DNA of 64,000 nt from Lytechinus pictus (taxonomy: Eukaryota): assembly GCF_037042905.1 (NCBI RefSeq), contig NC_087245.1, positions 19,346,001 to 19,410,000 of the forward strand, given 5' to 3'. Below the pieces are notes generated by a model. The model made no database searches and was not told where the DNA came from. It worked only from the letters and a program-made list of their open reading frames with translations. Every line of letters begins with the position of its first letter. Position 1 is the first letter of the stretch. Of this stretch, positions 13,401 through 63,680 are shown piece after piece. The position numbers and the translations under genes are program-made.

Positions 13401-16400
13401 CTGAAGGAGCACTTGCAGGACCAGGCCCAGCTCTGTTCTCAGCGCTGACTCTGAACTCATACTCTTCACCACGCATGAGACGAGTGACTCGGTGAGAGGT
13501 TACACCACTTGACACACTGGTCACCCTGGACCAATAGTTGCTTGATGTTTCCTTCTTCTCGATGATGTACCCTGAGACGGGAGCACCACCATCGGATTTA
13601 GGTGGATGCCATTCAAGTGTCACTGAATCAGAGGTGACGTTGGTAACAAGGGGCTTGCTTGGAGCATCAGGAACATCTGGTATAAAAAGGACATATATTG
13701 TAATATTCAAACAAAATATTCTGAAAATACTCCGAAACATACTTATGAAATATTGAAAATGATGGTGACAAGTTTCTTTGAGTTCTGCACAAATATATAT
13801 CAAACTGAAGTACTCACCATACTTCTTTTTCAGTTTGATAGTTTCCTTTGATTCAAGTGGCTCACTATCACCAATCTTGTTGATGGCAAACACTCGGAAG
13901 ACATAGGATGCACCCTCTTGTAGGCCAGTGACCCTAATGGTAGTATCCAGGGCATGTGCAGTTAGTCTGGTCCACATTGTCCTATCTTGCTCACGTCTTT
14001 CAATAGTGTAATGTGTGATTGGGGAGCCACCATCATCTGTAGGTTCTTTCCAGGACAAGAAGAGATCAGTGCTTCCAATATCTTTAGCAACTAGAGGTCC
14101 GCGTGGTTGATCTGGCCGATCTAGGACCTGGACACGGATAGTGATGGAATCACTTCCAGCTGCATTTGAAGCATTCAGGGTAAATGATCCTCCATCTTCC
14201 CTCACACAGTTTTTGATAGTGACAATGGTATCTCTTTCTGTTGTGTCAATCTTCACACGAGAGGATGGTTGAAGGGTGGAGCCATCTTTGGTCCACTTGA
14301 CAGTAGGCCTAGGACTAGCTTTGAAGGGTATATCAAGGTTGAATGTAGTCCCTACTCTAACTACCATGGTGTCATGGTACTTGTAGGTATCCAGCTTTGG
14401 TGCAACTGTAGGATGTTAAAATATGATACATCCAATGGTGAACAAAATTAATTAGATAAAATTCAATGAACAATTTTATATTATTCGAACTAATATTTAT
14501 CAAACCTGTATAATGGGGGATTTCTTAATAAGCAAGTATCTGACTGTATTAAATCATTACTCAATTCATACAGCTATATTACATACTTTCTAGTCAAGCA
14601 CTACTCACCAGCCATGCCAACAGAATCAGTTGGGTTTGTAGGTTTGCTCGTTCCTGCAGCATTGCACGCAACAACCCGGAACTGATAGGAACCTGTCACC
14701 GGAAGGTCATGGATATCCATTTTAGTCTCCCGGATAGGGTGAGAGTTGACAGGTAACCAACGCGTGCTGAAACGATCAGCACGTTCTACAATGTATCCAG
14801 TGACTGGGCTTCCTCCATCTGAAGTCGGAGGAGACCAGTTCAATGTCAGAGATTTGGCAGTGACATTGGAGATGGTAGGCTCTCCAGGTTGAGATGGTAC
14901 ACCTGAATGTGCAATAAGAGTCAAGATAAAGACGTAAGACCAGAGTGTTAGGTTAAACAAAATTATCCATCTTTATAGCTGAAATCGTTCAAAAATCTTG
15001 CTCATAAGTACACAGACCCAGTAACTTTGCATACACTAAACTTATCATTAGAAAAAAATCATCATATCTTTAAAAGTACAGAAAAGGCAACATACGTATG
15101 TGACCAGATTATAATTTGTTGATAAAAAAATTTGATTGAAACCAATTATATGACCATATACATATTTTTGTGATAATGATAACTTGCTGAACCTACTGAA
15201 TTTTGACTTGGCAGTGGCTAACTCAGATCCATCACTGGGCGGTCCAAGACCTGCTTTGTTCATAGCCATGACTCTGAACTCGTACTGTGCTCCTTCTTTC
15301 AAGTCTTTCACAGTGAATTCTGTATGTTGGATGGATTGTGAAGTACATGGCAACCATCGCACGGAGTAGGCATCCTTCTTCTCCAGTACGAATCCTGTGA
15401 TGTGGCTGCCTCCATCTGATTCTGGAGGGTTCCATTGAAGTGTCACAGTGGTCTTGGTAAAATCAGTGATAACTGGTGGTGATGGTTTTCCTGGAACATC
15501 TGTTAGGAAACAAAATTTTTCCTTACTTGAATAAAAGTTTCACATCACTGCATTATGATAATTTCTTTGAATTATGCATCATTCCTATTAATAACATAGG
15601 CTAAACTTAACATCAGAGTAAAAATTGTAGTAAAATGGTCATCATCTCAAAGCAGATAAGACCTTCCATTTATGGGAAAATAAGTTTACACTCATTAACA
15701 AAGATTTAATTATTAGAATAATCTCTAAACAGAATTAGGTTTCCTAGTATCTTTGCAGCTACAGGAAGAACAATTCACACTGAAACGTACCATAAGGAGG
15801 TTTCACAACTACAGAGTTGGTTGGTTCACTTGGCTGGCCAAAGCCCTTCTTGTTCGCAGCTACCACTCTGAATTCATACTCCGATTTCTGGGTGAGTCCG
15901 GTGACCGTGAAGATGGTATCACCTACCGGTGTATTGTTTACTGGGGTCCAGCGGAGTGCAAGTCTCTCCTTCTTCTGGACAACGTATCCAGTGACAGGAG
16001 AACCGCCATCACTGCTTGGAGGACGCCATTTCAGAGTTACTGACGTTGCCTTTACTTCTGTGATCTGTGGCTTGCTTGGGGCTTCAGGAACATCTAAAAC
16101 ATACACGATGAAAACATTTATTGGTTTATATTTTGTATTGAATAAATCTATACTGATGCTTCAATTCTCAAGTAGTTTTATCATTCATTTACTTAAACAA
16201 GTGGAATGCCTCTGGCCGTCTCACCTGCATCACGCGATTCAATATAGCAGCAGTGCTGATTTTGAAAACTACTATAACTCGCACAAGATGTTCAGTGATA
16301 CTTGGTTACTCTTATTTCCACGTTTTATGAACTAGACCAGGGATTCTCAAATGGTGGCGCGCGCGCCACTTGTGGCGCACCGAGCCTTGCGGGGTGGCGC

Positions 16401-46400: not shown

Positions 46401-49400
46401 CAAATGGAGCCTTGGCTATAAATTTGATGGAAGGATTACTAGGTTCTCCTGGGCCAACCTTGTTCTCAGCAATGACCCTAAACTCGTAGTCATTCTTCTC
46501 AACAAGGTCTGATACTGTCATTGTAGTTTCCTTGACCAGAGTTCTGTTGACCCTGATCCAGCTCCTCCCCTTTTCTCGTTTCTCCACTGTATATCCAACG
46601 ATGGTGCTTCCGCCATCTGAGGTAGGTGGTGTCCAGTTCAGTGTAACAGAATTCTTGTCAATGTCACTGACCTCAGGCATACCAGGTGCTCCTGGAGGCT
46701 TAACAGCTACCAATGACACTTCACTTGGTTTGCCTTTCCCTGCTTTATTGACAGCAATGACGCGGAATTCAGCGTTCTCTCCTTCTTTCAGACCCTTGAC
46801 ATTGAAAGATGTTCCATCGATGGAGTCTGTGACAGGGATCCAGCGACCAGACTTGTCCTTCTTCTCCAAGATGTAGCCTGTGATGTCAGCACCACCATCA
46901 GATCTTGGCGGGTCCCAGGAGAGCTCAACTTCTGTTGGGGAAATACGCTTCACTTCGGGAGCACTAGGTGCTTGAGGGATGTCTACATTAGAATATATAG
47001 ACAATGAGAAAAGGTTTGTAAGAACATGGAATACTAATTTTTGGTAGACATCAAATATCTTTGTTTGCGATTAGACACCAACTTTCCATTTGAATCATGG
47101 GTGATCTGTTGTTAAGTTTCAGCATTGAATATACATGTATCAGCAATATTTTACATTTGATTCTGTTGTATATTAACTGTTATTTCTTTCTAGTTCCGGT
47201 ACTGTCAATCAATTTAAATACAGATAACTCACGTCCATTGAACAAAACTCACCGAATCCATATTTAGCAACGACCTCAGTCTCCTTGCTAGGTTCACTTT
47301 GGCCTTCTTTGTTTTCTGCGATGATCCTAAAGGTATACTCAGTCTTGTCTTTCAAACCAGTCACCTTGAATGTGAGCTCAGTGAACAAGTCTTTCTTAAG
47401 GATGGTGAACCGTGTGCTAAATTTATCCTTCCATTCGATGATATAATTAGTTATGGGGCTTCCACCATCATCTTTTGGTGGGGTCCAGGTAAGAGTTAGG
47501 CTGGTTGGAGTGATTTCCGAGCCTTTGGGGGCTCCGGGTGCAGTAGGCACATCTGGTGTAAGAGAGAGAGACCAAAGAATAAGATATTAAAACTAAATGA
47601 TTACTCTATAGGGATCAAACATCATTTTGTTCTTAGATCATGATATAAATTGGTCAAAGTTCTAAATGGAAGTAAAGAAGAAAGAATTTTTTAGATTTAC
47701 ACTACATGGTTGGTCTAAATGAATTTTCCTTTAAAATAAGTAAATAAAACTCTTACCAAATGGAGACTTTGCAATGAATTTTGCTGATGGTTCACTAGGC
47801 TGTCCCTGTCCTACCCTGTTCTCTGCAATCACTCTGAACTCATAGTCGGTCTTTTCTGTAAGATCGGTGACCTTCATAGTGAGGGAATCTACAGGTTTCC
47901 TGTTGACACGTATCCAACGGTCTCTGCCTTTCTCTCTCTTCTCCACAATGTAGCCAGTAATACTGCTGCCACCATCTGAGGAAGGTGCCTTCCATGTCAC
48001 AGTTGCAGAAGTCTTGTTGATATCGCTGACTTCGGGTTTCCCAGGAGCACTAGGTGGCTTGGCAGTCAGGATGGTCACTTGACTTGGTTTGCTCTGACCT
48101 GCCTTGTTGACAGCACTGATTCTGAACTCGACGTCCTCATCATCTGGAAGACCTTTAACAGTAAAAGTGGTACCATCAATGGAGTCAGATGACACAGGTG
48201 TCCAGCGGCCAGACTTATCTTTCTTTTCAATGATGTAACCAGTAATATCAGATCCACCATCTGAGAAAGGTGGGGTCCAATCAAGTTGGATAGATGTTGG
48301 TGAAAGACGCCTAACTTCGGGAGCACTTGGTGCTTGTGGTATCTCTGCAGATTTTAGAATACAGAATATGGGTAGAATTCATTAGAATGTTGCATTTCAT
48401 TGGAATGGTTTTAGGTTAACTATTTAGCAAGTTAAACTGGTAATTTGGTAATTGAGACAATGCCATAATAAGTTTTACTTTTATGCTTTGTTAATTTAAT
48501 TATGAAAAAGAAAGCTCATAATCATACATTATGAATACTACCATTGTAGCTCACCTGCCTGCACATGTTTATTGACATTTTCTGATATTCGATAGAACAG
48601 TAAGGAGAATAACACTTACCAAAGCCGTATTTGGCTACAACTTTTGTCTCCCTGCTTGGTTCACCGGGTCCAGCTTTGTTCTGAGCAATCACCCTGAACA
48701 GGTACTCTCCATTCTCTTTCAGGTTCTTCAAAGTGAAGGTGAGATCAGTGATTGTGTCCCGAGTTACCGGACTGAACTTGGTGCTGTACTTGTCCTTGGA
48801 TTCGAGGATGTATTCAGTGATTGGGCTGCCACCATCAGAATCAGGAGCGGTCCAGGTGAGAGTCACAGAGTTTGGACTGATATTAGAGGCTTTTGGTAGA
48901 CCAGGAGCAGTTGGTACATCTGTTTTCAAACAATAACATTGACAGTTGAATGCACTAGCAAAAATATGCTTTTATATTAAGTTATCATTGTCATAGAAAT
49001 TAATCTTTCCAATACACCATTATAAATTTTAATCCATTTATTAACATGATGGCAATTAAAGGAATATGAAGAATTAAGCACAGGAGATCATATCTTGAAT
49101 ATTTTTTTAAATGATACTTTGTGAAATGAAAGAAAATAAATGTTTGTTTGAATATTTATTTGAATTAATGAATACTATCGTCAGCAAATAAATCAATTAT
49201 GCAAACAAGAACATTTTAAATGCAATATTCTACTCACCAAACGGTGCCTTGGCTAAAAAGCTTGCAGATGCATCACTTGCTTCTCCGGGTCCTGCCCTGT
49301 TTTCTGCAATAACTCTGAACTCATAATTGTTCCTTTCCACAAGGTCAGGTACCTTCATGGTGATCTCGGTAACAGGTTTTCTGTTGACTCGGACCCAGTG

Positions 49401-52400
49401 GTCACGTCCCCTTTCTCTCTTTTCAACGATGTAGCCTGTCACCGGACTGCCACCATCACTTTCAGGTGCAGTCCATGTGACAACAGCAGATGTCTTCTGG
49501 ATATCAGAGACTTCAGGCTTGCCAGGGGCACTTGGTGGCTTGGCTGCAACAACCGTCACTTCACTGGGTTTACCAGTACCTGCCTTGTTGATGGCACTGA
49601 CCCTGAACTCCACGTCCTCTCCTTCTTTCAATCCCTTGACAGTGAAGGTTGTGTCTTCAACGGAGTCTGATGTCACAGGTGACCATCGACCGGTCTTGTC
49701 CTTCTTTTCAATGATGTAGCCAGTGACCTCTGAGCCACCATCGGATGTGGGTGCTGTCCAATTGAGTTGGACGGACGTTGGTGAGAGACGTTTTACTTCT
49801 GGGGGAGCTGGCGGTTTTGGAGCCTCTGTAAATCAATTGATTAGCATATATATGTACTTTAAAGTTTAAAAGCAATTATGTTAAATGATATTATTTGTAG
49901 CTTATCTTTAATGTATTAATTATTTCAAAATAGTAAATTTTTCATTATATAATAGTAAATTTATCCAAGTGAGCAATCCACCATGTACATTTTTTCTTTG
50001 GTAAAGAAAATGATAGCTGTATACTTTTGTATATTACAAATAAATTTGTCACACTACACTTGATCCCAGACCTAGGAATATAACGTACAGGGGTATGAAT
50101 AGTAAATGCTAGCTACAATATAATTGATAGGAAGATACAAATATATATTATAAAAATTGTACACTCACCATATATTGAAATGTGAACTGATCAAATCTCA
50201 AATTAATATAAGAATTCAATTAGAATTATCTTTTAACTATGAAATTGCACACAAGATAAATGTATATAAACAATGCTCAATAAGCGAAGATGCAATACAA
50301 AGAGAAATAGTAAACATGTTCATGGAACAGGCAGTAGGTAGAACAAGGAATCAGTGACAATCTCAAAACATTTTATCAAATAATCTAAAAGGGGGATGAA
50401 AGGAGGATGTTTTACCAAATGGGAATTTTGCAGTGACATTGACCGATTGACTCGGTTTGCCCGGCCCAGCGAGGTTATGGGCCACCACGCGGAATTGGTA
50501 GTTCTCATTCTCTTTCAACTTCTTCACTAGTAGTTCCGTCTCATTGATCGGTTCTCTGTTGACTGGGGTCCACCTTGTGCTGTATGGCTCCTTCATTTCG
50601 ACGGTGTAACCCGTAATTGGACTACCGCCGTCATACGAGGGCTCTTTCCATGTGATGATGGCAGAGGTAGGGGTAGTATCCTTAGCAACAACATATCCGG
50701 GTGCTTCTGGTGTTTCTGTTTTCCATTTAGTAACCATGGAGATGATTTGAGGATGGGGTATGGTGGGAGAGAGAATAATGAACAAAGCATGCAAAGAGCA
50801 TTCACTTTCACTTCTTGAATCATGCATCCTTGAATAAGAGATGGGAATGCATGGTAAGGTCATTTTATCAAATTCAAATAGGATAGTGTCAATGATATGT
50901 GCAGACAGAATTATTCATATTTACAAAGATGATTATTAGGTATTGAATTCGAAATGACAAAGTTTATTTACTTTGTGGATGCAAATGTACGAGTTAAATA
51001 GATAGTTTCCCATATTTTGTTTCTTAATATTCAGAATTGTCTTTTGATAAGACCAATTCACAGAGCTCATGATATAGTGAAAATATCATTTTATCTCGTT
51101 TGGGTATTTTGATGATGTGTCACAATTCATAGCAATGACACTACCCTAAATCAATCTTGTAAGAATACTAAATAGGCTAAAAGCCAATCAACATACTTAA
51201 AACATGAAGTAAATTCAAGTCATTCAATAACATACAAAACTTACAATTTATTTTACCAGGCCACACATGGATGTCTAAATATTTAAGAGCAAGACAGTTT
51301 TAATTTTCTTACATTAACTATTAAATATCTACTTTGAAAAACTTAATGTGTGGCCCAGTGAGATATGTGCTTTTAAAAAAGAAAAAAAAATGCTTAATCA
51401 GCTTTTAAAAAAGATAAAAATTCTTAATCATAAATCATCTAATGCTTCAAATAAATGTATCTGGATGCTTTAAAAAGGTACTATGGTATTGATGTTTTGG
51501 GTTTCAAAACAAGACATCAAAAATATTCATGCACCTTCATGAATGAAAACATGCTTAAAAACCGAGAGGGGATCATAGCTCATCTATTCAACATCCGACA
51601 TCCATTAAATGAGACCCTGATTGGGTGTAATACTTTTTCTACATACTATAACTATGATAAATGAAAATTATGAGAAAAAATGATGTAGGATATCTTAGAT
51701 TAAATTATTAATAAATCCAGCATTCTGGCACAAAGCTTGAATAAATACATTCAAAGGTCTGATAAATATTGTACTACTGAATAGTAGAGTAGGATCAAGC
51801 AATGAACTTTAAATGGGTAAAGATAAACTTTGGGTAAAATAACATAAAAAGGAGCATTCTTTTACTCACCAAACTGGTGTTTGGCGATGAACTTGCATTC
51901 ATGACTTGGTTTACTTGGGCCAGCCTTGTTCTCTGCGATGACACGGTACACATACTCATTGTTCTCCTGGAGGTTGGTCACACTGAAGGAGGTATCTGGG
52001 AGAAGGTCCTTGTTGACTTTAGTCCAGCGAGAGCTGAACTTGTCCTTGGTCTCCAGGGTGTAGCCTAGTATAGGCCTGCCTCCATCAGAGTCAGGTGGTA
52101 ACCAAGACAGTGTGGCAGATGTTGGAGTGATGTCAGATGCAGCAAGGGAGTAAGGAGGCTCTGGTTCATCTGCATAAAGGGCAGGAAGAATACGTTTAGG
52201 GGTTGATATGGTAATAATAAAAACAATGCCTATGGAAGGTGAAATAAAACATTTAATGTACGTATGAATGATTGCAACAATTCTTTTTGCATTTCGCAAT
52301 GGGTGATTTCACAGGAACAATGTAATTTTGTCACCAACACCTATTAGTTTTTATCTTATATTCCCTTTTCTAGTGTCTAGCTATTTTGGTCTAATCATTT

Positions 52401-55400
52401 CCTTATTCCATGCATGATATTGTGGTACTTAGAAATGATAAAAGAAAAATTACACAGTGAGTCATTCTTCAAGAACAAGCATGTCTTATGATATCAAACA
52501 TACACTATACTGATACGGACTATCAAGGCATGATTCCATTCTGTATATCTTCTTTTTTTCATCCGCAGATTCGGGTATTGAAGAATTGCTTTGATTGCTT
52601 TCATAATAAATATGAAATGAGGTGATCATTTTCCAATGTAGGAAAGCCTATTTGTATTTTGAAACGAAATATCAGGTGTTACTTCTTATAAATCTTCATT
52701 CTAAAATAGTTTTAGAGTCTGAAACAAAATCTGTCTGAAATAATTTTGAACCTACCAAATGGAGCCTTGGCCGTAAATCTTGATGATGGGCTGCTGGGTT
52801 CGCCAGCACCAACTTTGTTTTCAGCAATGACTCTGAACTCATACTGGTTCTTTTCTGTAAGATCATTGACTTTCAAGGTAGTATCCTTCACCGGGCTCTT
52901 GTTGACCCTCACCCAGCGATCTCTTCCTTTCTCCCTTCGCTCTATGGTGTAACCCGTGATTGTGCTACCTCCATCAGATGAGGGCGCTGTCCACGTCACC
53001 GAGGCTGATGTCTTGTCAATGTCACTGATCTCGGGTGCTTCAGGAGCACTTGGTGGCTTGGCAGCTAATGTTGCTACCTGACTTGGTTTTCCAGTGCCGG
53101 CTTTGTTGACAGCGCTGACCCTGAATTCCACGTTCTCACCATCTGGCAGTCCTTTCACCGTGAAAGACGTCTCGGTCTCAGATTCGGTCACAGGAGACCA
53201 ACGTGGAGACATCTTTTCCTTCTTTTCCAAGACATAGCCGGTGATCTCAGATCCTCCATCTGATTTGGGAGGGGACCACTTGATGGTAGCAGAAATGGGA
53301 GACTCTCTGGTGACATTGTGTATAGTTGGTGCTTGAGGTGGTTCTATATAGAAATAGAGAGATACTTGTACAGAATTATATTATATAAATTATGCTTGAA
53401 ATTATAAATTAACGTCATTTGTATAGACAGTTAACAATTGTACTAGAAGAGCAGAAACACACACTTTCAGCAACAGAACGTCTAATAAAGCTTCAAACTT
53501 ACCAAATGGATATTTGGCTGTAACCTGAAGTTCTGGGCTTGGTTTACTTTGTCCAGCCTTATTCTCTGCAATCACTCGGAACTGATACTCCTCTTTCTCT
53601 TTAAGATTTGGGATGACTACAGTGGTTTCTGAAATCAATTCTCTGATGGCCTTTGTCCAACGGGAGCTGAACTTATCCTTCATCTCCACAGTGTAGCCTG
53701 TGATAGGGCTTCCACCATCAGAAGCCGGAGGTGTCCAGGTTAAGGTTACAGAGGTTGGAGATAAGTCAGAGGGTGTTGGTTTACCTGGTGCATCAGGAAC
53801 ATCTGTTAAAATAAATTTTGAAATAATAATAATAACAATGCTAATATTTATTACAACTGTGTAAATAGTTTGGGCCATTCTGAGAAAACGCAGTTCACAT
53901 GTAAAAACAATTATGATAAGAATAAAAATATAATTTATGATACTGCTAAAAACAATAAAAGTATATATAGGTTTTATTAGCCGCAGACCACACCATGGTT
54001 AGCATTGTTTGTCATAGAGGTAAATAGGTCACCAGAACACATTATTCACACAAAGAAAAAGTCCCTTCTTCACGTAATAGGCAATATGAAATATTTTTAC
54101 TTGATTAAATTTATATAATACTTCATGATTCTTTACCATATGGAGGCTTGGCCACAAATGGTTTACAGGCATCACTGGGACTCCCAGGCCCAGCTGGATT
54201 GACAGCAATCACTCTGAACTGATATTCATTCCCTTCCTTTAGGTCTTTGAGAGTGATTGTGACAGTATCTCCTTGCGTCTGGCCAGCCTTGGTCCAACGG
54301 GAAGAGAAGCGGTCCTTCCGCTCAATGATGTACTCTGTGATTTCCGCACCACCATTGCTGGAAGGAGGTGCCCATTCTAGATGAACTGATGTCTCGGTAA
54401 TGTCAGATGGAACAGGTGTACTAGGTGCTCCAGGAACATCTGGATATTAAAAAAAAATGAAAAAGGTTTGTTAACAGACTTCCAATCCTAAATTTGATTG
54501 GGGAAGTGTTAGACCCACTGGAAAGTTCACAATAACCTTTTGCCACTGATATCATAGAATATAATTTTAATTTATTGTTAGCTATTGATCTTTGGTTAAA
54601 AAATACCTGAATATCAGAATATATTATTTAATATAAAAAGAGTGTTAAGAAGACAGATGTTTCTATATCTCACCAAATGGTAGTTTGGACTTGATTGTCT
54701 CAGAAGGCAGACTTGGTGGTCCTACACCAGCTATGTTCACAGCACTGACACGGAAATCATAGATGGCATCTTCTGTCAGTCCTGTAACAGTGAAGCTGGT
54801 CTCAGGAACAGGTTCCTTGTTGACATTAGCCCACTTATCGCGAGATTTATCCCTCTTTTCAATGATGTAGCCTGTAACCTCGGAACCACCGTCATCATCA
54901 GGAGGTAACCAAGTGAGATGGACAGAGGTTCGATCCACATTGGTTGGTGTAGGAGGAGGAGGAGGGCCAGGCTCATCTGAAACAAACAATCAATCATAAA
55001 AGATAATTAACAATCGACAATCAATTTAAGAAAAAAAGTTAAACATTTACCTCCATTGATTATCATTTGTTACAGGTGCTTAAGATAACATAAGTTTTGA
55101 GAATTATTTACAGAATAATGTGCAAGAATTCAAAAGCACAAATGAAAGACTCATAATATAAAGATTAAGATATATACATACATGTACATTAATAATAATT
55201 GCAGTTGATCTAGAAGAATTACAATAATACCATATCACTGAATACCACATCTATTGGTGAAAACATGAACAAAATGCATACCATAAGGTGGCTTAGCCTT
55301 CTTTGGTTGGGTAGCTGGACTTGATTCGCCAACACCTGCGGCGTTTTCAGCACTGACCCTAAACATGTAGTTTTTACCCTCTGTGAGGTCATTGAGAGTG

Positions 55401-58400
55401 AGTGTTAGTTCAGTGACAAGGTCTTCTTTGTGGGCCTTGGTCCAACGTTTACGATCGGCATCGCATTTCTCCACAATGTAGCCCAGGATTTCAGCACCGC
55501 CATCATCTGTAGGTGGTGTCCATGTTAGGGTCATGCGGGTCTTGTCAACATCACTGATGTCTGGAATGCCTGGTGGTCCTGGTACATCTACAAAGGATAT
55601 AATAAAATTGAAAATTAAGTACGATTAAATAGAAAATTGGAAGGACAAAGAGAAGGAATGATTAACAAATACTTTAATTGTGTTTTGACTATACACTGTG
55701 TATTTATTGTCTTTACAACTTTAAAGTCAACTGGCTTCACATGAAAAAGTCAAAGTTTATTTTCCTATTTTGCATTAAATATGCTGCTGTATGTATCACG
55801 TAAATATTGAATGATCACCTAATTTGAGAAAATACTAATGAAACATAATACTCAGTAGCTTTTGATTTATAATTTAATCTGGGGGAGAGAACAAACAATA
55901 CATATTAACAAGTACATATTGAAAAAGAATATGTACAAACACGCAAAATGTAACACAGGAAAACAATCCATCATTATACTTACCATAAGGTGGTTTGGCC
56001 CTGCGCTGGTCAGATGGCTCACTGGGTTTACCAATGCCAGCTTTGTTTTCAGCCGAAACCCTGAATTGGTAGTCGTTGCCTTCCTTGAGGTCAATGATCG
56101 TGTACACCACCTCCTCGATCGATGTCTCCTTGACCTTTGTCCATCTTGAAGACACGCGATCTCTCTTCTCCACCACATAGCCTGTGACTGGGGAACCACC
56201 ATCATTTTCAGGTGGTGTCCAGGTTATTGTCATTGATGTGCTGTCCACTTCCAGTATGTTTGGCTTTCCAGGAGGACCAGGAACGTCTAGAATGTTTTAG
56301 AGGAAATTATGAACCAAATAAGATATTAACTTATAGTGGTAAATAAAAGTAAGTAAGATTATAATTTGGAACTTAATTCATATTAGGAGAAGCAGCTTTA
56401 TTGACTTTATTGCTTTAAGTAAAATTGTTCCTAGATCAAGGCATAGGACTAAAATTCCTAGGATATTCACATAATCATTATAATCACATATATTTTTAAA
56501 TTTTGTTTATGTGAAAAGACTATGTAGTTACTTACCATATGGTGCTTTTGCAATTTTGGAATCTGATGGTTGGCTGAAGGGACCAGTGCCAGCAAGGTTA
56601 ACAGCTGCAACACGGAACTCATATTCCTTCTTCTCGATCAGACTCTTGATAGTAACTTTAGTCTCAGTAGTGGTTGTCTTCAAGGACTGTGTCCATTTGC
56701 CATTGTTTTCCATCTTCTGGATGATGTATCCCGTGATTGGGCTTCCACCATCTGAATCAGGCACAGTCCAGGTGAGTTCCATCTGTGTTTTATCTGCTGA
56801 TGTCACTTCTGGCTTTCCTGGAGCTGAAGGAGCATCTGATTGGATATTATAAAAACATAGTGATTAATAATGCTGATTATAATTTTCTTTTGAGCTTTTC
56901 AGGATTAGTGATGGAATAATTCAAGTAAAAAAAAATGCATGTAGCAACATAGATATAAACAATTGTTATTGGTATGTAAGTGTATTGATTATAACTGAGC
57001 TGAAAAAAAAACAGATTCTATTTTTTTTTACATTCAAATTGTAAAAGTAAGTCTAATATTTACCAAATGGCAACTTGGCTTTTTGTAGATTGGAGGGCTC
57101 ACTTGCAGGTCCAGGACCTGCTAAGTTCTCAGCAATGATTCTGAACTGATATTCAGAATCCTCAGTCAGGCCAGTTACTGTGAGTGTTGTCTCAGTAACT
57201 GTCTCCTTTGTGACACGGACCCATCGAGATGAAGTCTTCTCTTTGCGTTCTACAATGTATCCAGTAATTGGGCTACCACCATCTGATTCAGGAGGGGTCC
57301 AAGTGATTGTCATCTTGGTGATGTTGTACGCAGTGACCTGTGGTTTACCTGGGGCTCCAGGGGCATCTGAGAATAAGAAATGTGATTACAGGAAATATTC
57401 ATAAAAATCTAGACATAATGTGATGCAATGACAAATCTTTTGAAAATCTTACAGTCATTTTGCTAATGCTTGATTTCATTTTGGGGTTGCTTTTCCCCAA
57501 TAAACCACCTTAAAAAGGTATTTGAATTTACTTCTGTGCTTGATGCTCCAAAGAAATCTATTAAATTCTACTTCATGGTTACACTTACCGAATGGCAACT
57601 TGGCTTTCACAGTGTCTGATGGTGGACTTGGTTGACCAACTCCTGCTGCATTCTCAGCTGACACTCTGAACTGGTACTCGTTACCTTCATGCAGGTCAGA
57701 TATGGTCAGTGTCAGTTCAGTCACTAGATCTTTATTACACTTCACCCAGCGACCTCGGGCTGCCTCACATCTCTCAACGATGTAGCCCATGACAGGAGAA
57801 CCGCCATCATTTTCTGGAGGTGTCCAGGTAACTGTGATTGTTGTCTTGTTGATGTTTTCAGTAGTAGGTTTAGAAGGTGGGCCAGGTACATCTGTATGAA
57901 AAGAAAGTTAGAAGATGGGTTCATTAATTTTTTCCAAACAAATGAGCAAATACATTTAAGTCACCATATGAACTTTTTGTATAAGTATGAAATGCTTCAA
58001 TAACTGAATGTATAATTTTCAGGCTCATAGAATGAACAAGTGGAATGCCTCTGGCCGTCTCACCTGCATCACGCGATTCAATATAGCAGCAGTGCTGATT
58101 TTGAAAACTACTATAACTCGCACAAGATGTTCAGTGATACTTGGTTACTCTTATTTCCACGTTTTATGAACTAGACCAATACACTTATAGAGATATGATG
58201 GCAATTCAACAAATACCCCCAACGTGGCCAAAGTTCTTTGACCTTACATGACCTTTGACCTTGATCATGTGACCTGAAACTCGCACAGGATGTTCAGTGA
58301 TACTTGATTACTCTTATGTCCAAGTTTTATGAACTAGACCAACACACTTTCAAATTTATGGCTGTAATTCAACATATACCCCAATTTGGCCAAAGTTCAT

Positions 58401-61400
58401 TGACCCTAAATGACCTTTGACCTTGATCATGTGACCTGAAACTTGCACAGGATGTTCAGTAATACTTGATTACTATTATGTCCAAGTTTCATGAATCAGA
58501 TCCATAAACTTTCAAAGTTATGATGGTAATTCAACAGATACCCCCAATTCGGCCAAAGTTCATTGACCCTAAATGACCTTTGACCTTGGTCATGTGACGT
58601 TAAACTCATGCAGGATGTTCAGTGATACTTGATTAACCTTATGTATAAGTTTCATGAACTAGGTCCATATATTTTCTAAGTTATGATGACATTTCAAAAA
58701 CTTAACCTTAGGTTAAGATTTTGATGTTGATTCCCCCAACATGGTCTAAGTTCATTGACCCTAAATGACCTTTGACCTTGGTCATGTGACATGAAACTCA
58801 GGCAGGATGTTCAGTAATACTTGATTAACCTTATGGCCAAGTTTCATGAACTAGGTCCATACACTTTCTAAGTTATGCTGTCATTTCAAAAACTTAACCT
58901 CAGGTTAAGATTTGGTGTTGACGCCGCCGCCGCCGCCGCCGCCGCCGCCGTCGCCGCCGCCGTCGGAAAAGCGGCGCCTATAGTCTCACTCTGCTATGCA
59001 GGTGAGACAAAAACCTGTTCTCACCATATGGTGCTTTGGCCATTTTGTTGTCTGAGGGTTCACTGAATGGACCAGTTCCTGCCAGGTTGATGGCTGCTAC
59101 CCTGAATTGGTATTCTTTCTTCTCAATCAAGCTTGTGACAGTTGTTGTTGTCTCAGTAACAACCGTTTTTAGGGCCTTTGTCCATTTTCCAGTCTTCTCC
59201 TTCTTCTCGATGGTATAACCAGTGATAGGGCTGCCACCATCTGATTCTGGTAAAGTCCAGGTTAGTTCCATCTCCGTCTTGTCAAAAGAAGTGATGTCTG
59301 GTTTTCCAGGTGCAGAGGGAACATCTACAAGTGGATTGCAAATCATAACATGAAATAATCCATGAAATTTAGAATCATTAAAGTACTGGATGAGATCAGT
59401 GCTATTGGATTTTACAAAAAGCTGAAAACATTATCATGTTCAACAACTCATTTTAGGCTTTAATCATCATTAAGATAAAAGACAAGGTGATGAATTGCGA
59501 ATCATATAGAAACTATTCAATTCTACATTTAGTGATCTCCATTAATGTTGAAATACAATATGGGACTATCAATGGTAGATTGATATCACATTCCCTTTAC
59601 ACCTAAAATAAGAGGACTCACCAAATGGCAACTTGGCCTTCTGTAGATCAGATGGTTCACTAGCAGGTCCGGGACCTGCTAAGTTCTCAGCAATGATTCT
59701 GAACTGGTATTCAGAACCCTCAGTCAGACCAGTTACTGTGAGTGTTGTCTCAGTAACTGTTTCCTTTGTGACACGGACCCATCGAGATGAAGTCTTCTCT
59801 TTGCGTTCTACAGTGTATCCTGTAATTGGACTACCACCATCTGATTCAGGAGGAGTCCAAGTGATTGTCATCTTGGTGATGTTGTACTCAGTGACCTGTG
59901 GTTTACCTGGGGCTCCAGGGGCATCTGAGAATAAGAAATGTGATTACAGGAAATATTCATAAAAATCTAGACATAATGTGATGCAATGACAAATCTTTTG
60001 AATATCTTACAGTCATTTTGCTAATGCTTAATTTCATTTTGGGGCTGCTTTTCCCCAATAAACAACAACAAAAAAGGTATTTGAATTTACTTCTGTGCTT
60101 GATGCTCCAAACACATCTATGCAATTCTACTTCATGGTCACACTTACCGAATGGCAACTTGGCTTTCACAGTGTCTGATGGTGGACTTGGTTGACCAACT
60201 CCTGCTGCATTCTCAGCTGACACTCTGAACTGATATTCGTTACCTTCGTGCAGGTCAGATATGGTCAGTGTCAGTTCAGTCACTAGATCTTTATTACACT
60301 TCACCCAGCGACCTCGGGCTGCCTCACATCTCTCAACGATGTAGCCCTTGATGGGAGAGCCGCCATCGTTTTCTGGAGGTGTCCAGGTAACTGTAATTGT
60401 TGTCTTGTTGATGTTTTCAGTAGTAGGTTTAGAAGGTGGGCCAGGTACATCTGTATGAAAAAAAAGTTAGAAGATGGGTTCATTAATGTTTTCCAAACAA
60501 ATGTGCAAATACATTTAAGTCACCATATGAACTTTTTGTATAAGTATGAAATGCTTCAATAACTGAATGTATAATTTTCAGGCTCATAGAAGGAAAAACC
60601 TGTTCTCACCATATGGTGCTTTGGCCATTTTGTTGTCTGAGGGTTCACTGAATGGACCAGTTCCTGCCAGGTTGATGGCTGCTACCCTGAATTGGTATTC
60701 TTTCTTCTCAATCAAGCTTGTGACAGTTGTTGTTGTCTCAGTAACAACCGCTTTGATGGCCTTTGTCCATTTTCCAGTCTTCTCCTTCTTCTCGATGGTA
60801 TAACCAGTGATAGGGCTGCCACCATCTGATTCTGGTAAAGTCCAGGTTAGTTCCATCTCCGTCTTGTCAAAAGAAGTGATGTCTGGTTTTCCAGGTGCAG
60901 AGGGAACATCTACAAGTGGATTGCAAATCATAACATGAAATAATCCATGAAATTTAGAATCATTAAAGTACTGGATGAGATCAGTGCAATTGGATTTTTA
61001 CAAAAAGCTGAAAACATTATTATCATGTTCAACAACTCATTTTAGGTTTTAATCATCATTAAGATAAAAGACAAGGTGATGAATTGCGAATCATATAGAA
61101 ACTATTCAATTCTACATTTAGTGATCTCCATTAATGTTGAAATACAATATGGGACTATCAATGGTAGATTGATATCACATTCCCTTTACACCTAAAATAA
61201 GAGGACTCACCAAATGGCAACTTGGCCTTCTGTAGATCAGATGGTTCACTAGCAGGTCCGGGACCTGCTAAGTTCTCAGCAATGATTCTGAACTGGTATT
61301 CAGAACCCTCAGTCAGACCAGTTACTGTGAGTGTTGTCTCAGTAACTGTTTCCTTTGTGACACGGACCCATCGAGATGAAGTCTTCTCTTTGCGTTCTAC

Positions 61401-63680
61401 AGTGTATCCTGTAATTGGACTACCACCATCTGATTCAGGAGGAGTCCAAGTGATTGTCATCTTGGTGATGTTGTACTCAGTGACCTGTGGTTTATCTGGG
61501 GCTCCAGGGGCATCTGAGAATAAGAAATGTGATTACAGGAAATATTCATAAAAATCTAGACATAATGTGATGCAATGACAAATCTTTTGAATATCTTACA
61601 GTCATTTTGCTAATGCTTAATTTCATTTTGGGGCTGCTTTTCCCCAATAAACAACAACAAAAAAGGTATTTGAATTTACTTCTGTGCTTGATGCTCCAAA
61701 CACATCTATGCAATTCTACTTCATGGTCACACTTACCGAATGGCAACTTGGCCTTCACAGTGTCTGATGGTGGACTTGGTTGACCAACTCCTGCTGCATT
61801 CTCAGCTGACACTCTGAACTGATATTCGTTACCTTCGTGCAGGTCAGATATGGTCAGTGTCAGTTCAGTCACTAGATCTTTATTACACTTCACCCAGCGA
61901 CCTCGGGCTGCCTCACACTTCTCAACAATGTAGCCCATGACAGGAGAACCGCCATCGTTTTCTGGAGGTGTCCAGGTAACTGTAATTGTTGTCTTGTTGA
62001 TGTTTTCAGTAGTAGGTTTAGAAGGTGGGCCAGGTACATCTGTATAGAAAAAAGGAAAATTACATATTTTCTCAAATTTTATGAAATAAATATGGACATA
62101 TGTTCATTATTGTTTTTGTGTGAGCGTCAGTCAGAATATGGGAATATGACACCCAGGTCGACCAAGGGAAATATCGAAAAATAAATGAATTAAACCAAAA
62201 AATGTTGTATCCCATCAATGTGGATGCAAGAACCAAACTCACCATAAGGTGCCTTGGCCATTTTGTTGTCCGAGGGTTCACTGAAAGGACCAGTTCCAGC
62301 AAGATTAATGGCTGCAACCCTAAATTGGTATTCCTTCTTCTCACTCAAGTTTGTCACAGTAGTTGTTGTCTCAGTAACCACGGTTTTGATAGCCTTTGTC
62401 CACTTTCCAGTCTTCTCCTTCTTTTCGATGGTATAACCAGTGATTGGACTGCCACCATCAGATTCTGGTACAGTCCAGGTTAGTTCCATCTCTGTCTTAT
62501 CAACAGAAGTGATGTCTGGCTTTCCAGGTGCAGAGGGAACATCTGGAGATGAGGATGTTTAGAAGTTATAATCATTCAATAAATGGGAACCAATATTGAG
62601 AAAAAAAATACAAAAATTGGAACAAAAATATTAAGTACATTTGCCTTAAAGGCTTTCACAAAAAATATTGATTAGCATCAAGTTAATCAGAAGGTAAATG
62701 ATGCAATAAGGATATGCACTGATTGTTTTCTATCCTTTCTAGATTAAGAGCAATGTTAAAAAAGGAATGAGCGACGGTATAGCATGAAATCACATGATTT
62801 CCAAAATCTGCAACAGAACTAAGACTCACCAAATGGCAGCTTGGCCTTCTGCAGATCGGATGGCTCACTAGCAGGTCCGGGACCTGCTAAGTTCTCAGCA
62901 ATGATTCTGAACTGGTACTCGGAACCCTCAGTCAAACCAGTTACTGTGAGCGTCGTCTCAGTAACTGTCTCCTTTGTGACACGGACCCATCGAGATGAAG
63001 TCTTCTCTTTGCGTTCTACAATGTATCCAGTAATTGGGCTACCACCATCTGATTCAGGAGGAGTCCAAGTGATTGTCATCTTGGTGATGTTGTACTCAGT
63101 GACCTGTGGCTTACCTGGGGCTCCAGGGGCATCTATAAATGGACCAGAATAATGATCTTTACATAATTCTGTTTGTTGAAGCATAGTACAAAGCTTAGAT
63201 TAAAACACTTTGAATGAATGCATTCTAGTGATGCTTCTTGTGTGTCACAGTGGAGTGAAATTCTGTTTTCATGCTTGCAATTAAAAAACGATTATGATAT
63301 CCATACTCATTATTGATTTATTTATTTTACCAGGAACTTGAAGAATAATGATTTTGATTTACTGTTTTCATACTTACCAAATGGTAGCTTCGCTGTGAAG
63401 GTATCAGAAACAGGGCTTGGTTTTCCAACTCCTGCAGCATTCTCTGCAGACACCCTGAACTGATATTGTCCACCATCTGTCAGATCAGAGACAGTGAAGG
63501 TAAGTTCAGTGACTTTATCACTGTTACATTTGACCCAGCGACCCCTGGAGACATCACAACGCTCAATGATATACCCAGTGACGGGCGAGCCACCGTCATC
63601 CCCTGGAGGGGTCCAGGATACTGTGATGGTAGTTTTGTTGATGTTCTCACAGGATGGTTTTTCAGGAGCTCCTGGCACAT
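1265..63680 (-). CDS. Giant titin/twitchin-like Ig/Fn3 protein gene, multi-exon and partial (5' end beyond the window); about 77 Fn3 and 8 Ig domains in 79 exons
   Basis: Exons repeat the titin-type Fn3 motif P.AP..P......L.W.PP.SDGGS.I.GY.VE.....W....Y.FRV.A.N.AG.G.PS and I-set Ig motifs (G.P.P.V.W, D.G.Y); all are flanked by AG/GT with compatible phases. Confidence 0.95.
1805..1848. repeat. Imperfect (GT)n/(GA)n microsatellite in intron
   Basis: gtgtgtgtgtgtgagtgtatatgtgtgagagaggagagatagag. Confidence 0.6.
1869..2041 (-). CDS. Exon: C-terminal half of I-set Ig
   Basis: VHHGRELMTGRKY...ETGMYTIIAKNKHGSVRSSAELLIQ; AAG acceptor; phase 2-1. Confidence 0.9.
2500..2611 (-). CDS. Exon: N-terminal half of I-set Ig (not in ORF track)
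   Basis: GAAPSIQMEIQNTMVPEGQTGMFSCKISGSPKPKVSW; phase 1-2. Confidence 0.9.
3511..3810 (-). CDS. Exon: Fn3
   Basis: 300 nt, phase 1-1, Fn3 motif. Confidence 0.92.
4732..5037 (-). CDS. Exon: Fn3
   Basis: 306 nt, phase 1-1. Confidence 0.92.
5495..5797 (-). CDS. Exon: Fn3
   Basis: 303 nt, phase 1-1. Confidence 0.92.
6221..6505 (-). CDS. Exon: Ig
   Basis: PYTGCPTPKVEW...DTGKYSITMTNDAG. Confidence 0.92.
6766..7029 (-). CDS. Exon: Ig
   Basis: TLECRISNPKAEVKW...DTGKYTCECG. Confidence 0.9.
7370..7672 (-). CDS. Exon: Fn3
   Basis: 303 nt, phase 1-1. Confidence 0.92.
7996..8298 (-). CDS. Exon: Fn3
   Basis: 303 nt, phase 1-1. Confidence 0.92.
8624..8911 (-). CDS. Exon: Ig
   Basis: WLKDDKQV...DSGSYTIKISNKAG. 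Confidence 0.92.
9254..9562 (-). CDS. Exon: Fn3
   Basis: 309 nt, phase 1-1. Confidence 0.92.
9908..10020 (-). CDS. Exon: C-terminal part of Fn3
   Basis: VTKLIEDKEYQFRVRAENKLG; phase 2-1. Confidence 0.9.
10497..10572 (+). mobile_element. Short L2-type LINE/SINE 3' tail remnant
   Basis: Stem-loop gcgcata...acattat-tc-ataatgt...tatgcac followed by (TAT)n. Confidence 0.55.
10646..11120 (-). CDS. Exon: Ig plus N-terminal part of Fn3
   Basis: ORF 10642-11079; phase 1-2. Confidence 0.92.
11698..12000 (-). CDS. Exon: Fn3
   Basis: 303 nt, phase 1-1. Confidence 0.92.
12427..13011 (-). CDS. Exon: Ig plus Fn3
   Basis: 585 nt, phase 1-1. Confidence 0.92.
13374..13676 (-). CDS. Exon: Fn3
   Basis: 303 nt; donor gtgtgt. 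Confidence 0.88.
13818..14405 (-). CDS. Exon: Ig plus Fn3
   Basis: 588 nt, phase 1-1. Confidence 0.92.
14609..14902 (-). CDS. Exon: Fn3 (last of the Ig-free array)
   Basis: 294 nt, phase 1-1. Confidence 0.9.
15197..15499 (-). CDS. Exon: Fn3
   Basis: 303 nt. Confidence 0.9.
15791..16093 (-). CDS. Exon: Fn3
   Basis: 303 nt. Confidence 0.92.
16198..18418 (-). mobile_element. Non-autonomous Helentron-type element (HINE/DINE-1-like), copy 1, interrupted by a nested hAT element
   Basis: 13-bp subterminal inverted repeats gtctcacctgcat (16218-16230) and atgcaggtgagac (18400-18412); terminal hairpin; (GCC)n tract; internal ~163-bp tandem repeats; A-run flanks. Confidence 0.8.
16338..17578. mobile_element. 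Non-autonomous hAT (Buster/Charlie-like) DNA transposon nested in Helentron copy 1
   Basis: Perfect 8-bp TSD aacTAgac (16330-16337, 17579-17586); imperfect TIRs cagggattctcaa / cagcctttctcaa (10/13); absent from copy 2. Confidence 0.85.
18463..18759 (-). CDS. Exon: Fn3 (not in ORF track)
   Basis: 297 nt, DAPSAPLEPTITSITEDSATLTWAAPSRDGG. Confidence 0.9.
19079..19381 (-). CDS. Exon: Fn3
   Basis: 303 nt. Confidence 0.92.
19678..19980 (-). CDS. Exon: Fn3
   Basis: 303 nt. Confidence 0.92.
20266..20568 (-). CDS. Exon: Fn3
   Basis: 303 nt. Confidence 0.92.
20715..21017 (-). CDS. Exon: Fn3
   Basis: 303 nt. Confidence 0.92.
21446..21745 (-). CDS. Exon: Fn3
   Basis: 300 nt. Confidence 0.92.
22146..22448 (-). 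CDS. Exon: Fn3
   Basis: 303 nt. Confidence 0.92.
22961..23263 (-). CDS. Exon: Fn3
   Basis: 303 nt. Confidence 0.92.
23716..23830 (-). CDS. Exon: C-terminal part of split Fn3
   Basis: VTGLTEGTEYEFRVVAENDAG; phase 0-1. Confidence 0.9.
24201..24388 (-). CDS. Exon: N-terminal part of split Fn3
   Basis: DEPGAPGAPEAS...EDTKLK; phase 1-0. Confidence 0.9.
25122..25268. mobile_element. MITE (~147 bp)
   Basis: TIRs caggggccatggaa / caggggcctcggaa; flanking direct repeat tattc; G-run and C-run inside. Confidence 0.65.
26072..26089 (-). CDS. Candidate 18-nt microexon (adds about ICQQKE between two Fn3 domains)
   Basis: ttctactttag|TTTGCCAACAAAAAGAAG|gtaagc; phase 1-1, no stop. Confidence 0.4.
26463..26765 (-). 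CDS. Exon: Fn3
   Basis: 303 nt. Confidence 0.92.
27037..27336 (-). CDS. Exon: Fn3
   Basis: 300 nt. Confidence 0.92.
27701..28003 (-). CDS. Exon: Fn3 (coding frame not in ORF track)
   Basis: 303 nt, LPDAPAKPDITNIDSKQITLAWSPPWSDGGSPIIGY. Confidence 0.9.
28249..28551 (-). CDS. Exon: Fn3
   Basis: 303 nt. Confidence 0.92.
28674..30059. mobile_element. Non-autonomous hAT-like DNA transposon (~1.39 kb)
   Basis: TIRs caaccgcgtagccagg / caggcgcgtagccagg (14/16); 8-bp TSD tctgatac / tctcatac (7/8). Confidence 0.8.
30328..30442 (-). CDS. Exon: C-terminal part of split Fn3
   Basis: TTGLKENHNYEFRVIAVNKAG; phase 0-1. Confidence 0.9.
32161..32348 (-). CDS. Exon: N-terminal part of split Fn3
   Basis: VPDAPSQP...ELTYQ; phase 1-0. 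Confidence 0.9.
32643..32939 (-). CDS. Exon: Fn3
   Basis: 297 nt. Confidence 0.9.
33412..33714 (-). CDS. Exon: Fn3
   Basis: 303 nt. Confidence 0.92.
33924..34226 (-). CDS. Exon: Fn3
   Basis: 303 nt. Confidence 0.92.
34403..35265 (+). mobile_element. Probable solo LTR (BEL/Pao-like)
   Basis: TG...CA ends (tgtttt...cttca); flanks ggacat / agacat; TATATAA at 34838; internal 25-bp tandem duplication 34779-34828. Confidence 0.5.
35394..35690 (-). CDS. Exon: Fn3
   Basis: 297 nt. Confidence 0.92.
36016..36476 (-). CDS. Exon: 1.5 Fn3 (3' part of split double exon)
   Basis: FSPRWTPV...KPPEAP...KPPYG; phase 2-1. Confidence 0.9.
36762..36891 (-). CDS. Exon: N-terminal part of Fn3
   Basis: DVPSQPHSLKITDVEPTAVTLEWSEPDSDGGDNVSAYIIEKKDR; phase 1-2. 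Confidence 0.88.
37176..37472 (-). CDS. Exon: Fn3 (single type)
   Basis: 297 nt. Confidence 0.92.
37694..38284 (-). CDS. Exon: double Fn3
   Basis: 591 nt, AAG acceptor. Confidence 0.9.
38416..38530 (-). CDS. Exon: C-terminal part of split Fn3
   Basis: VTRLSEGKDYQFRIIAENKAG; phase 0-1. Confidence 0.9.
38854..39035 (-). CDS. Exon: N-terminal part of split Fn3
   Basis: DVPDRPDQP...DLSFK; phase 1-0. Confidence 0.9.
39298..39882 (-). CDS. Exon: double Fn3
   Basis: 585 nt. Confidence 0.92.
40381..40680 (-). CDS. Exon: Fn3 (single type)
   Basis: 300 nt. Confidence 0.92.
40878..41465 (-). CDS. Exon: double Fn3
   Basis: 588 nt. Confidence 0.92.
41725..42021 (-). CDS. Exon: Fn3 (single type)
   Basis: 297 nt. 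Confidence 0.92.
42312..42899 (-). CDS. Exon: double Fn3
   Basis: 588 nt. Confidence 0.92.
43372..43512. mobile_element. Degenerate MITE (~141 bp)
   Basis: TIRs ctggtgagggtttcataga / caggtgggtgtttcataaa (15/19); internal inverted aagagcga / tcgctctt. Confidence 0.55.
44088..44387 (-). CDS. Exon: Fn3 (extra single, possibly alternative)
   Basis: 300 nt; pyrimidine-poor acceptor catgaacaccatag. Confidence 0.85.
45213..45513 (+). mobile_element. 5'-truncated L2/CR1-group LINE fragment (ORF2 C-terminus, 3' UTR, (ATT)n tail)
   Basis: Translates LCIPLSKLSSAEKRFAVAAAKTWNAVPLPIRNASSILGLKSSLKTYLFPQ*, matching the F.V.A...WN.LP..IR...S...FK..LKT.LF ORF2 end. Confidence 0.8.
45702..46001 (-). CDS. 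Exon: Fn3 (single type)
   Basis: 300 nt; AAG acceptor. Confidence 0.88.
46401..46982 (-). CDS. Exon: double Fn3
   Basis: 582 nt. Confidence 0.92.
47253..47552 (-). CDS. Exon: Fn3 (single type)
   Basis: 300 nt. Confidence 0.92.
47757..48344 (-). CDS. Exon: double Fn3
   Basis: 588 nt. Confidence 0.92.
48620..48919 (-). CDS. Exon: Fn3 (single type)
   Basis: 300 nt. Confidence 0.92.
49238..49825 (-). CDS. Exon: double Fn3
   Basis: 588 nt. Confidence 0.92.
50416..50715 (-). CDS. Exon: Fn3 (extra single, possibly alternative)
   Basis: 300 nt; purine-rich acceptor aatggaaaacag. Confidence 0.83.
51870..52169 (-). CDS. Exon: Fn3 (single type)
   Basis: 300 nt. Confidence 0.9.
52756..53343 (-). 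CDS. Exon: double Fn3
   Basis: 588 nt. Confidence 0.92.
53503..53802 (-). CDS. Exon: Fn3 (single type)
   Basis: 300 nt. Confidence 0.92.
54137..54439 (-). CDS. Exon: Fn3 (not in ORF track)
   Basis: 303 nt, DVPGAPSTPVPSDITETSVHLEWAPPSSNGGAEITEY. Confidence 0.9.
54674..54976 (-). CDS. Exon: Fn3
   Basis: 303 nt. Confidence 0.92.
55282..55587 (-). CDS. Exon: Fn3 (C-like)
   Basis: 306 nt. Confidence 0.92.
55984..56286 (-). CDS. Exon: Fn3 (B-like)
   Basis: 303 nt. Confidence 0.92.
56536..56835 (-). CDS. Exon: Fn3 type A
   Basis: 300 nt. Confidence 0.92.
57064..57366 (-). CDS. Exon: Fn3 type B
   Basis: 303 nt. Confidence 0.92.
57589..57891 (-). CDS. Exon: Fn3 type C
   Basis: 303 nt. Confidence 0.92.
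58037..59010 (-). mobile_element. Non-autonomous Helentron-type element, copy 2 (intact, ~974 bp)
   Basis: subTIRs 58057-58069 and 58996-59008; hairpin 58983-59008; (GCC)n about 58923-58962; empty site at 60581-60610 shows insertion into an A-run with no clear TSD. Confidence 0.85.
59025..59324 (-). CDS. Exon: Fn3 type A
   Basis: 300 nt. Confidence 0.92.
59622..59924 (-). CDS. Exon: Fn3 type B
   Basis: 303 nt. Confidence 0.92.
60148..60450 (-). CDS. Exon: Fn3 type C
   Basis: 303 nt. Confidence 0.92.
60610..60909 (-). CDS. Exon: Fn3 type A
   Basis: 300 nt. Confidence 0.92.
61211..61513 (-). CDS. Exon: Fn3 type B
   Basis: 303 nt. Confidence 0.92.
61737..62039 (-). CDS. Exon: Fn3 type C
   Basis: 303 nt. 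Confidence 0.92.
62243..62542 (-). CDS. Exon: Fn3 type A
   Basis: 300 nt. Confidence 0.92.
62830..63132 (-). CDS. Exon: Fn3 type B
   Basis: 303 nt. Confidence 0.92.
63378..63680 (-). CDS. Exon: Fn3 type C (diverged)
   Basis: 303 nt. Confidence 0.92.

Follow-up and report, generated by a model that had tools for sequence, protein, structure and literature searches.

A window of 64,000 nt from the sea urchin Lytechinus pictus (NCBI RefSeq assembly GCF_037042905.1, contig NC_087245.1, positions 19,346,001 to 19,410,000; window positions are counted from its first letter) contains a run of 66 consecutive fibronectin type III (Fn3) domains, numbered F03-F68 and encoded by 61 exons between 14609 and 63680. 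The gene lies on the minus strand and is transcribed from 64000 towards 1. An earlier note, made from the sequence of this window only, had reported the same exons, domains and boundaries, the lack of immunoglobulin (Ig) domains in between and the likely continuation of the array past the window edge. Pfam, a local profile and a stop-free splice model reproduce these counts and coordinates. The array indeed continues, but by two Fn3 domains only, at 64056-64358 and 66081-66377 when the window numbering is extended into the flank (as is done hereafter for all 5' coordinates above 64000), whereupon an I-set Ig domain at 66638-66929 ends the run. The total is 68 Fn3 domains with an I-set Ig on both sides, hereafter the rod, which comprises 63 exons, 20,349 nt and 6,783 aa, or approximately 740 kDa. 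Domains are spaced by about 100 aa and, taking 3.9-4.4 nm per domain, the rod would measure roughly 265-300 nm, which agrees with the 250-300 nm estimated previously. As predicted from sequence, the rod is part of a titin/connectin-type gene that has a spring part, a Fn3-rich part and a kinase at one locus.

The DNA of the window has a GC content of about 0.38 and the exons are short. The Pfam scan was performed on 140 minus-strand stop-to-stop open reading frames (ORFs) of at least 60 aa. Between 14604 and 63735, fn3 (PF00041) was identified in 59 of 110 ORFs, in all 59 with scores of 25.5-125 bits at a gathering score of 25 bits, and none of these 110 ORFs matches an Ig family. I-set was matched by eight of the 140 ORFs, likewise above the curated cut-off and every one at or below 14415. 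The local Fn3 profile was made from 40 clean single-domain exons of the window and used to search 3,335 six-frame ORFs of at least 12 aa with filters off. It returned 70 Fn3 rows within 14619-63678, all of them on the minus strand. Two half-domain exons, 38416-38530 and 30328-30442, are smaller than the 60 aa required for the Pfam scan and were detected by the local profile only, with E-values of 1e-13 and 1e-10. The 70 rows correspond to 61 exons with 66 domains: an intron divides each of four domains, eight exons encode two domains and another one encodes a half plus a whole domain. The ends of the first and last rod exons in the window, 63680 and 14609, are those of the splice model.

Hidden Ig exons were sought with a local Ig profile made solely from the six Ig domains present in the window, which gave a best E-value of 2.3 within 14.6-64 kb on both strands. 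The same profile finds divergent I-band-type Ig domains in the flanks at E-values of 1e-5 to 1e-18. Among 120 intronic minus-strand ORFs of 35-59 aa none matches any Ig family at E <= 0.1. Pfam, the Ig profile and the short intronic ORFs hence all agree that the array is free of Ig.

The splice model was obtained by choosing GT-AG sites that hold the frame, with two junctions inspected by eye. It consists of 79 exons from 66929 to 3521, with a total of 25,659 nt, and is stop-free with GT-AG at every intron; the median intron of the whole rod is about 296 nt. Linkers between the domains are proline-rich and of the AK.P[FY]-D.P type. The AK.P[FY].VP motif that the earlier note gave for the linkers is found in its strict form at 24 of the 67 junctions and as the looser AK.P[FY]..P at 41, and junctions internal to two-domain exons resemble ..AAKPPGPPG.... 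Since the DGG anchors of the domains are 94-102 aa apart, the rod has no spacer. P, E, V and K together reach a fraction of at most 0.55 in any 40-aa stretch of the rod, and the previously noted lack of PEVK or low-complexity spacers is therewith upheld.

Transcript evidence comes from two contig sets without RNA label, which contain about one third of the sampled words, roughly the exonic share. Minus-strand, exon-sized alignments were obtained at 12001-32000 for a contig of 15,938 nt (X20) and one of 3,819 nt (X1), and as introns are absent from them we infer that both are transcript assemblies. Their pieces match the predicted exons, with two surplus aligned bases at some ends. The contig gaps equal the sums of the predicted exons (601+2/603, 303/303, 0, 300/300, 1507+2/1509, 292+2/294 and 303/303), which therefore leaves no room for an extra exon. 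X20 spans 20 predicted exons, from 28249-28551 through the Ig-Fn3 exons 13818-14405 and 12427-13011, and X1 spans 12, as determined from record spacing. For exons from 28551 downwards, a single spliced contig thus crosses from the rod into the Ig-containing part, and the possibility of several separate genes at this boundary is ruled out. Depth of raw RNA runs (X21 and X22, about 6% of each) on the titin exons is 0-0.35x.

Introns of the same region contain repeats. A dispersed repeat of about 975 nt is located at 16195-18417, in an intron of 2,369 nt flanked by exons 18463-18759 and 15791-16093, where it is split by a nested element of 1.25 kb (query positions 139-1384). Its contig word depth amounts to about 40,000-155,000, compared with 5-10 on the titin exons, and its raw RNA depth to 400-1,275x with the first mate on the plus strand. 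The repeat without the nested element is represented by about 1,300 reads in each run, which pass over 16327-17577, and the loose read ends at 16195 and 18417 are diverse. A first look at the 812-Mb assembly gave 1,342 candidates, and the scored copies are 90-100% identical. No Rfam match was obtained for the repeat at E <= 0.01, nor a Pfam match on its ORFs. Two further intronic stretches of low GC content (0.31), 24674-26007 and 28676-30676, have contig depths of 40-3,300 with many small indels and presumably are further repeats.

The flanks were examined over 80 kb 5' and 40 kb 3' of the window, in the orientation of the gene. Directly 3' of the rod, at 3521..14405 on the minus strand, Pfam, profiles and splice model identify four Ig-Fn3-Fn3 units followed by Ig-Ig-Fn3-Fn3-Fn3. 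Exons here are of the types [Ig-Fn3], 585-588 nt, and [Fn3], 303 nt. The four units occupy 7.4-14.4 kb, and by Pfam, profile and splice model the pattern starts only below 14.4 kb, as had been noted before. The 141-nt intron 13677-13817 is open in frame, such that a 350-aa ORF (13366-14415) reads across it; the spliced contigs omit this intron. Further downstream an Ig domain is split over two exons (1264..2091, minus strand; I-set halves at 1264-1467 and 1702-2091), which leads towards the kinase. Past base 1 of the window, the order in 5' to 3' direction is Ig, Fn3-Fn3, Ig-Ig-Fn3, kinase exons and Ig-Ig. The kinase exons are located 5.8-8.1 kb beyond base 1, also on the minus strand (L014:1867-3683; Pfam Pkinase 2359-3683), and the kinase is probably active, judging from the sequence, since its HLDLK, DFG and APE motifs are intact. 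It shows 39.5% identity to Strongylocentrotus purpuratus twitchin and 44-50% to other twitchins and Ciona titin.

On the 5' side the rod is preceded by about 14 tandem Ig domains at 66.6-91 kb. Beyond these lies a PEVK-like open frame of 2,702 aa on the minus strand (92639-100744; L008:8639-10000 plus L009:1-6744), which consists for 61% of P, E, V and K (E 24%, K 19%) and is built of repeat units of roughly 150 aa that are nearly identical to each other. The PEVK-like exon is itself preceded by further Ig domains and a single, isolated Fn3. The assignment to the titin family is supported by this combination: an I-set/Fn3 chain, an Ig-Ig-Fn3-kinase-Ig module at the 3' side and tandem Ig with a PEVK-type part at the 5' side. 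SESTD1, CCDC141 and connectin have been described as a conserved 'connectitin' neighbourhood (PMC12198301). An exon-wise six-frame genome search of low sensitivity, limited to CRAL_TRIO_2 (PF13716), gave six matches, none of them on the contig of this gene.

How does the gene compare with the known members of the family? Likeness to vertebrate titin concerns the Fn3 type, the period of about 100 aa and the P[FY]-D.P linkers between Fn3 domains; the placement of a Fn3-rich part that follows an Ig/PEVK-type part and precedes an Ig-Ig-Fn3-kinase end; and growth by duplication of multi-domain super-repeats. The A-band super-repeat that interleaves Ig with two or three Fn3 domains is lacking, however: where the 7- and 11-domain super-repeats of titin include Ig, there are here 68 Fn3 domains with a period of three in part of the run. 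The two may also differ in their kinases: titin kinase has been described as a pseudokinase, and the HLDLK, DFG and APE motifs are kept in the urchin gene. With twitchin/projectin (UNC-22) the gene shares Ig-Fn3-Fn3 repeats and a Fn3-kinase-Ig module, with the kinase 40-50% identical to those of twitchins, but twitchin has neither a PEVK-like part nor a 68-Fn3 rod. Fn3 runs in the canonical echinoderm twitchins (S. purpuratus and Apostichopus models) do not exceed three domains. Orthology to twitchin is ruled out by the 68-Fn3 run and by the kinase, whose mere 39.5% identity to S. purpuratus twitchin points to a separate gene. A second cluster of titin-type Fn3 domains is present on the same contig at 31051422-31089853, 30-45% identical to the query domain, and may be the canonical twitchin gene.

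The earlier note had considered the protein to be lineage-specific, which is contradicted by homologues in other species. Searches covered proteins of up to 5,000 aa, and the retrieved Saccoglossus, Patiria and Diadema models are fragments of 816-4,695 aa, none of which spans the whole rod. The best database matches to a two-domain exon are ambulacrarian proteins with 47-54% identity, and by tblastn the window is at best 76-78% identical to Diadema fragments and about 40-57% to Patiria. Long Ig-free runs occur in the 'titin-like' models of the hemichordate Saccoglossus kowalevskii (P0001, 19 Fn3 and no Ig; P0122, about 27 Ig then 19 Fn3) and of Patiria miniata (P0121, 40 Fn3 then one Ig), and in Diadema setosum (P0003, six Ig then 12 Fn3; P0002, 15 Fn3; P0032, nine Fn3). 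Outside these groups they are found in the molluscs Bulinus (P0123, 40 Fn3) and Lottia (P0004, 17 Fn3), the brachiopod Lingula (P0007, 14 Fn3 then Ig) and the rotifers Rotaria and Adineta, whose titin models P0168, P0174 and P0206 read, with I for Ig and F for Fn3, ...IFFFIIFFFII followed by 14 Fn3 at a truncated C-terminal end. Metagenome proteins with 24-34 Fn3 and discoidin-type families (P0133, P0149, P0156, P0157, P0181, P0189, P0190 and P0231) were left out of the comparison, as they are probably extracellular repeat proteins without relation to the rod.

Each domain of the foreign proteins was matched to its nearest domain of the window in order to establish register. Diadema P0003 follows the order F01, F02, F03, Y-Z-X-Y-Z-X-Y-Z, F15 (X, Y and Z being the classes of the N-terminal three-domain unit described below) with identities of 0.76-0.89, P0032 corresponds one-to-one to F42-F48 and P0002 to F51-F65 in order, with identities of 0.69-0.83; the Diadema fragments are hence collinear with the rod at 0.69-0.89. 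The last 13 Fn3 domains of Patiria are in register with F56-F68 at eight of 13 positions and are likewise followed by Ig. The echinoderm and hemichordate models have the same architecture as the gene described here and those of Diadema have the same domains in the same order. Orthologous rods are present in other echinoderms and in a hemichordate, and the rod is old and shared. The runs of Bulinus, Lottia, Lingula and rotifers resemble it in being Ig-free with 14-40 titin-type Fn3 domains but, known from gene models, are only 36-45% identical and do not show domain-by-domain register.

Three zones can be distinguished in the window part of the rod, all on the minus strand. Zone 1 (56536..63680, F03-F14) consists of four tandem X-Y-Z units of three Fn3 domains in single-domain exons, three of the four units being 95-99% identical in protein. 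Identity among F01-F20 is 0.715 at lag 3 versus 0.52 at lag 1. At the DNA level, with introns counted, U2 and U3 show 96-99% identity and differ by an insertion of about 970 nt, whereas the exons of U1 and U2 are 90-98% identical and not all their introns are shared. The insertion, in U3, consists of 163- and 192-nt tandem repeats (58115-58921, 86-92% matches) within a 1,133-nt intron. Zone 2 (39298..53343, F20-F41) is an older three-domain super-repeat, in which an [FnA-FnB] exon (582-588 nt) precedes one or, in some cases, two [FnC] exons of 297-300 nt. Identities within the classes are 0.58, 0.60 and 0.51 versus 0.42-0.46 between classes. Identity among F20-F48 is 0.54 at lag 3 versus 0.44; lags 7 and 10 give extra peaks in places with an additional C-type domain. 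Zone 3 (14609..39035, F42-F68) is aperiodic, forms the C-terminal part and holds the four intron-split Fn3 domains; identity among F48-F68 is flat with 0.45-0.48 at every lag.

This pattern suggests that the rod grew by tandem duplication of three-Fn3 units. Duplication of triplets appears to be still active at the N-terminal end, while the 27 C-terminal domains appear to correspond one-to-one between species. The Diadema model P0003 has three X-Y-Z triplets versus four here, so the copy number of N-terminal triplets seems to vary between echinoids if that model is complete. Lag-3 periodicity is also found in Lottia (0.75, 0.68 and 0.57 versus 0.40) and Bulinus (0.48, 0.46 and 0.42 versus 0.37), is weak in Patiria (0.57 versus 0.52) and absent in the Saccoglossus fragments.

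As to function, we consider it rather more probable than otherwise that the rod serves as a stiff scaffold or ruler, about 265-300 nm long, which runs alongside the myosin/paramyosin filament. It would be the A-band-equivalent segment, with the elastic Ig/PEVK spring on one side and the kinase end on the other, and as a stiff chain along the thick filament it would fulfil, in the absence of Ig, the task of the Ig/Fn3 super-repeats of vertebrate titin. Three lines of evidence lead to this proposal. Among sequences of solved structure, the nearest are the titin chains in cardiac thick-filament structures (8g4l, 8q6t), and others nearby are titin A-band fragments, for example 3lpw (A77-A78), MyBP-C and myomesin. 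The Fn3-containing part of titin is its A-band region (PMC12198301), which is bound to thick filaments with an 11-domain repeat of about 43 nm that equals the myosin helical pitch (PMC10665226). Finally, the linkers resemble those of titin Fn3 tandems, which are described as [N/Y]PF then [D]PI-type (PMC10665226).

Several points weigh against this proposal or against parts of the description it builds on. The thick-filament role is drawn by analogy. Crowns of the myosin filament are spaced by 14.3-14.5 nm, which is not matched by a triplet of about 11.7 nm (3.9 nm per domain). The period of three is confined to F03-F14 and F20-F41, is missing from the best-conserved C-terminal third and may record the history of duplication rather than function. 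The RNA evidence spans exons from 28551 downwards only, and the link of the rod to the 5' Ig/PEVK part relies on gene models of other species. Finally, an Ig profile of six domains may overlook divergent Ig domains in proteins of other species; by this profile vertebrate titin fragments show Fn3 runs of six, which may be due to missed Ig.

The best surviving alternative, although unlikely, is that the rod serves as a spacer or as an extensible segment which lengthens the elastic Ig/PEVK part and which would straighten, and perhaps unfold, under load in muscles with long or variable filament overlap. The misfit of the triplet with the crown spacing would suit such a segment, the rod adjoins the 14 or so tandem Ig domains and the PEVK-like exon, and it has no Ig of the kind that in the C-zone of titin binds MyBP-C (PMC10665226). 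Nevertheless, in known titin-family proteins Fn3 marks the thick-filament-associated part, the short, proline-rich linkers belong to the stiff type of the titin A-band, and a scaffold that depends on register would account better than a generic spring for echinoids having kept both the number and the order of the domains.

Still less probable, in our estimation, is that the rod is an array of alternatively spliced cassettes, of which isoforms carry subsets such that the full 68-domain rod is rarely or never made. The exon structure would permit it: 55 of the 63 rod exons are phase 1-1 with a length divisible by three and the other eight form the four split pairs, hence any whole exon or pair can be skipped in frame. 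However, X20 and X1 include every predicted exon they span, and the Diadema and Patiria models keep consecutive domains, although contigs lose rare variants, so minor skipped isoforms are possible. Finally, an assembly error that multiplied one three-Fn3 unit into the near-identical ones at 57-63 kb, as their identities of 95-99% in protein and, for U2 and U3, 96-99% in DNA including introns might suggest, is very improbable given the insertion of about 970 nt and the unalignable introns of U1 and U2 by which the copies differ and the three tandem X-Y-Z units of the Diadema model, and even without all extra copies about 59 consecutive Fn3 domains would remain.

The scaffold proposal can be extended to the history of the family, albeit with considerable doubt. 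The ancestral bilaterian connectin might have had a thick-filament-binding, Ig-free rod of three-Fn3 units, from which the patterns of chordate titin and twitchin derive by a swap of Fn3 for Ig. Echinoderms, hemichordates, lophotrochozoans and rotifers would then keep the old state, and elsewhere one Fn3 of the triplet would have been replaced by Ig in a conserved exon frame of about 585 + 300 nt, which would yield the Ig-Fn3-Fn3(-Fn3) of chordate titin and twitchin/projectin. A frame of these lengths is common to the [FnA-FnB][FnC] exons of the rod and the [Ig-Fn3][Fn3] exons 3' of it, which suggests that Fn3 and Ig may hold equivalent positions. Comparison of rod classes B and C with the Fn3 domains that follow the 3' Ig domains gave class identities of 0.38-0.42 throughout, and since this provides no signal, the parallel exon layout is the one basis of the replacement idea.

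Has this architecture been described before? The earlier note presented the system as undescribed, which holds for the published literature in so far as no description of a titin-family protein with an Ig-free rod of Fn3 domains was found in our search, older connectin papers on amphioxus, ascidians, annelids and crayfish being outside it. It does not hold for databases, since automatic titin-like and twitchin-like gene models already contain the run. The architecture is that of a known family in an unusual layout, already present in automatic gene models and unremarked. A 2025 study of connectin evolution includes sea urchin and acorn worm sequences in its SEC14 and kinase trees and states, in its section 18, that it is as yet impossible to decide between the scenarios for bilaterian connectin (PMC12198301). 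In the portions of that study considered here the domain layout of such a gene is not described, and 'FN3' occurs zero times in its five supplementary files.

The titin A-band is thought to act as ruler and scaffold by means of Ig/Fn3 super-repeats that are matched to the thick filament. A rod of 68 Fn3 domains without Ig, conserved domain by domain between sea urchins, offers a natural test of whether association with the thick filament and length control require Ig domains. Its homogeneous poly-Fn3 tandems would also be handy material for mechanical and structural work. Moreover, a non-chordate deuterostome gene in which an Ig/PEVK spring and a kinase share one locus with a long Fn3 part, beside a separate twitchin-like gene, bears on the question of split versus fusion in the history of connectin. 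If the ancestral rod proposed above were true, the Ig domains of the titin A-band would be a later addition, for instance for the docking of MyBP-C, and would not be needed for lying along myosin.

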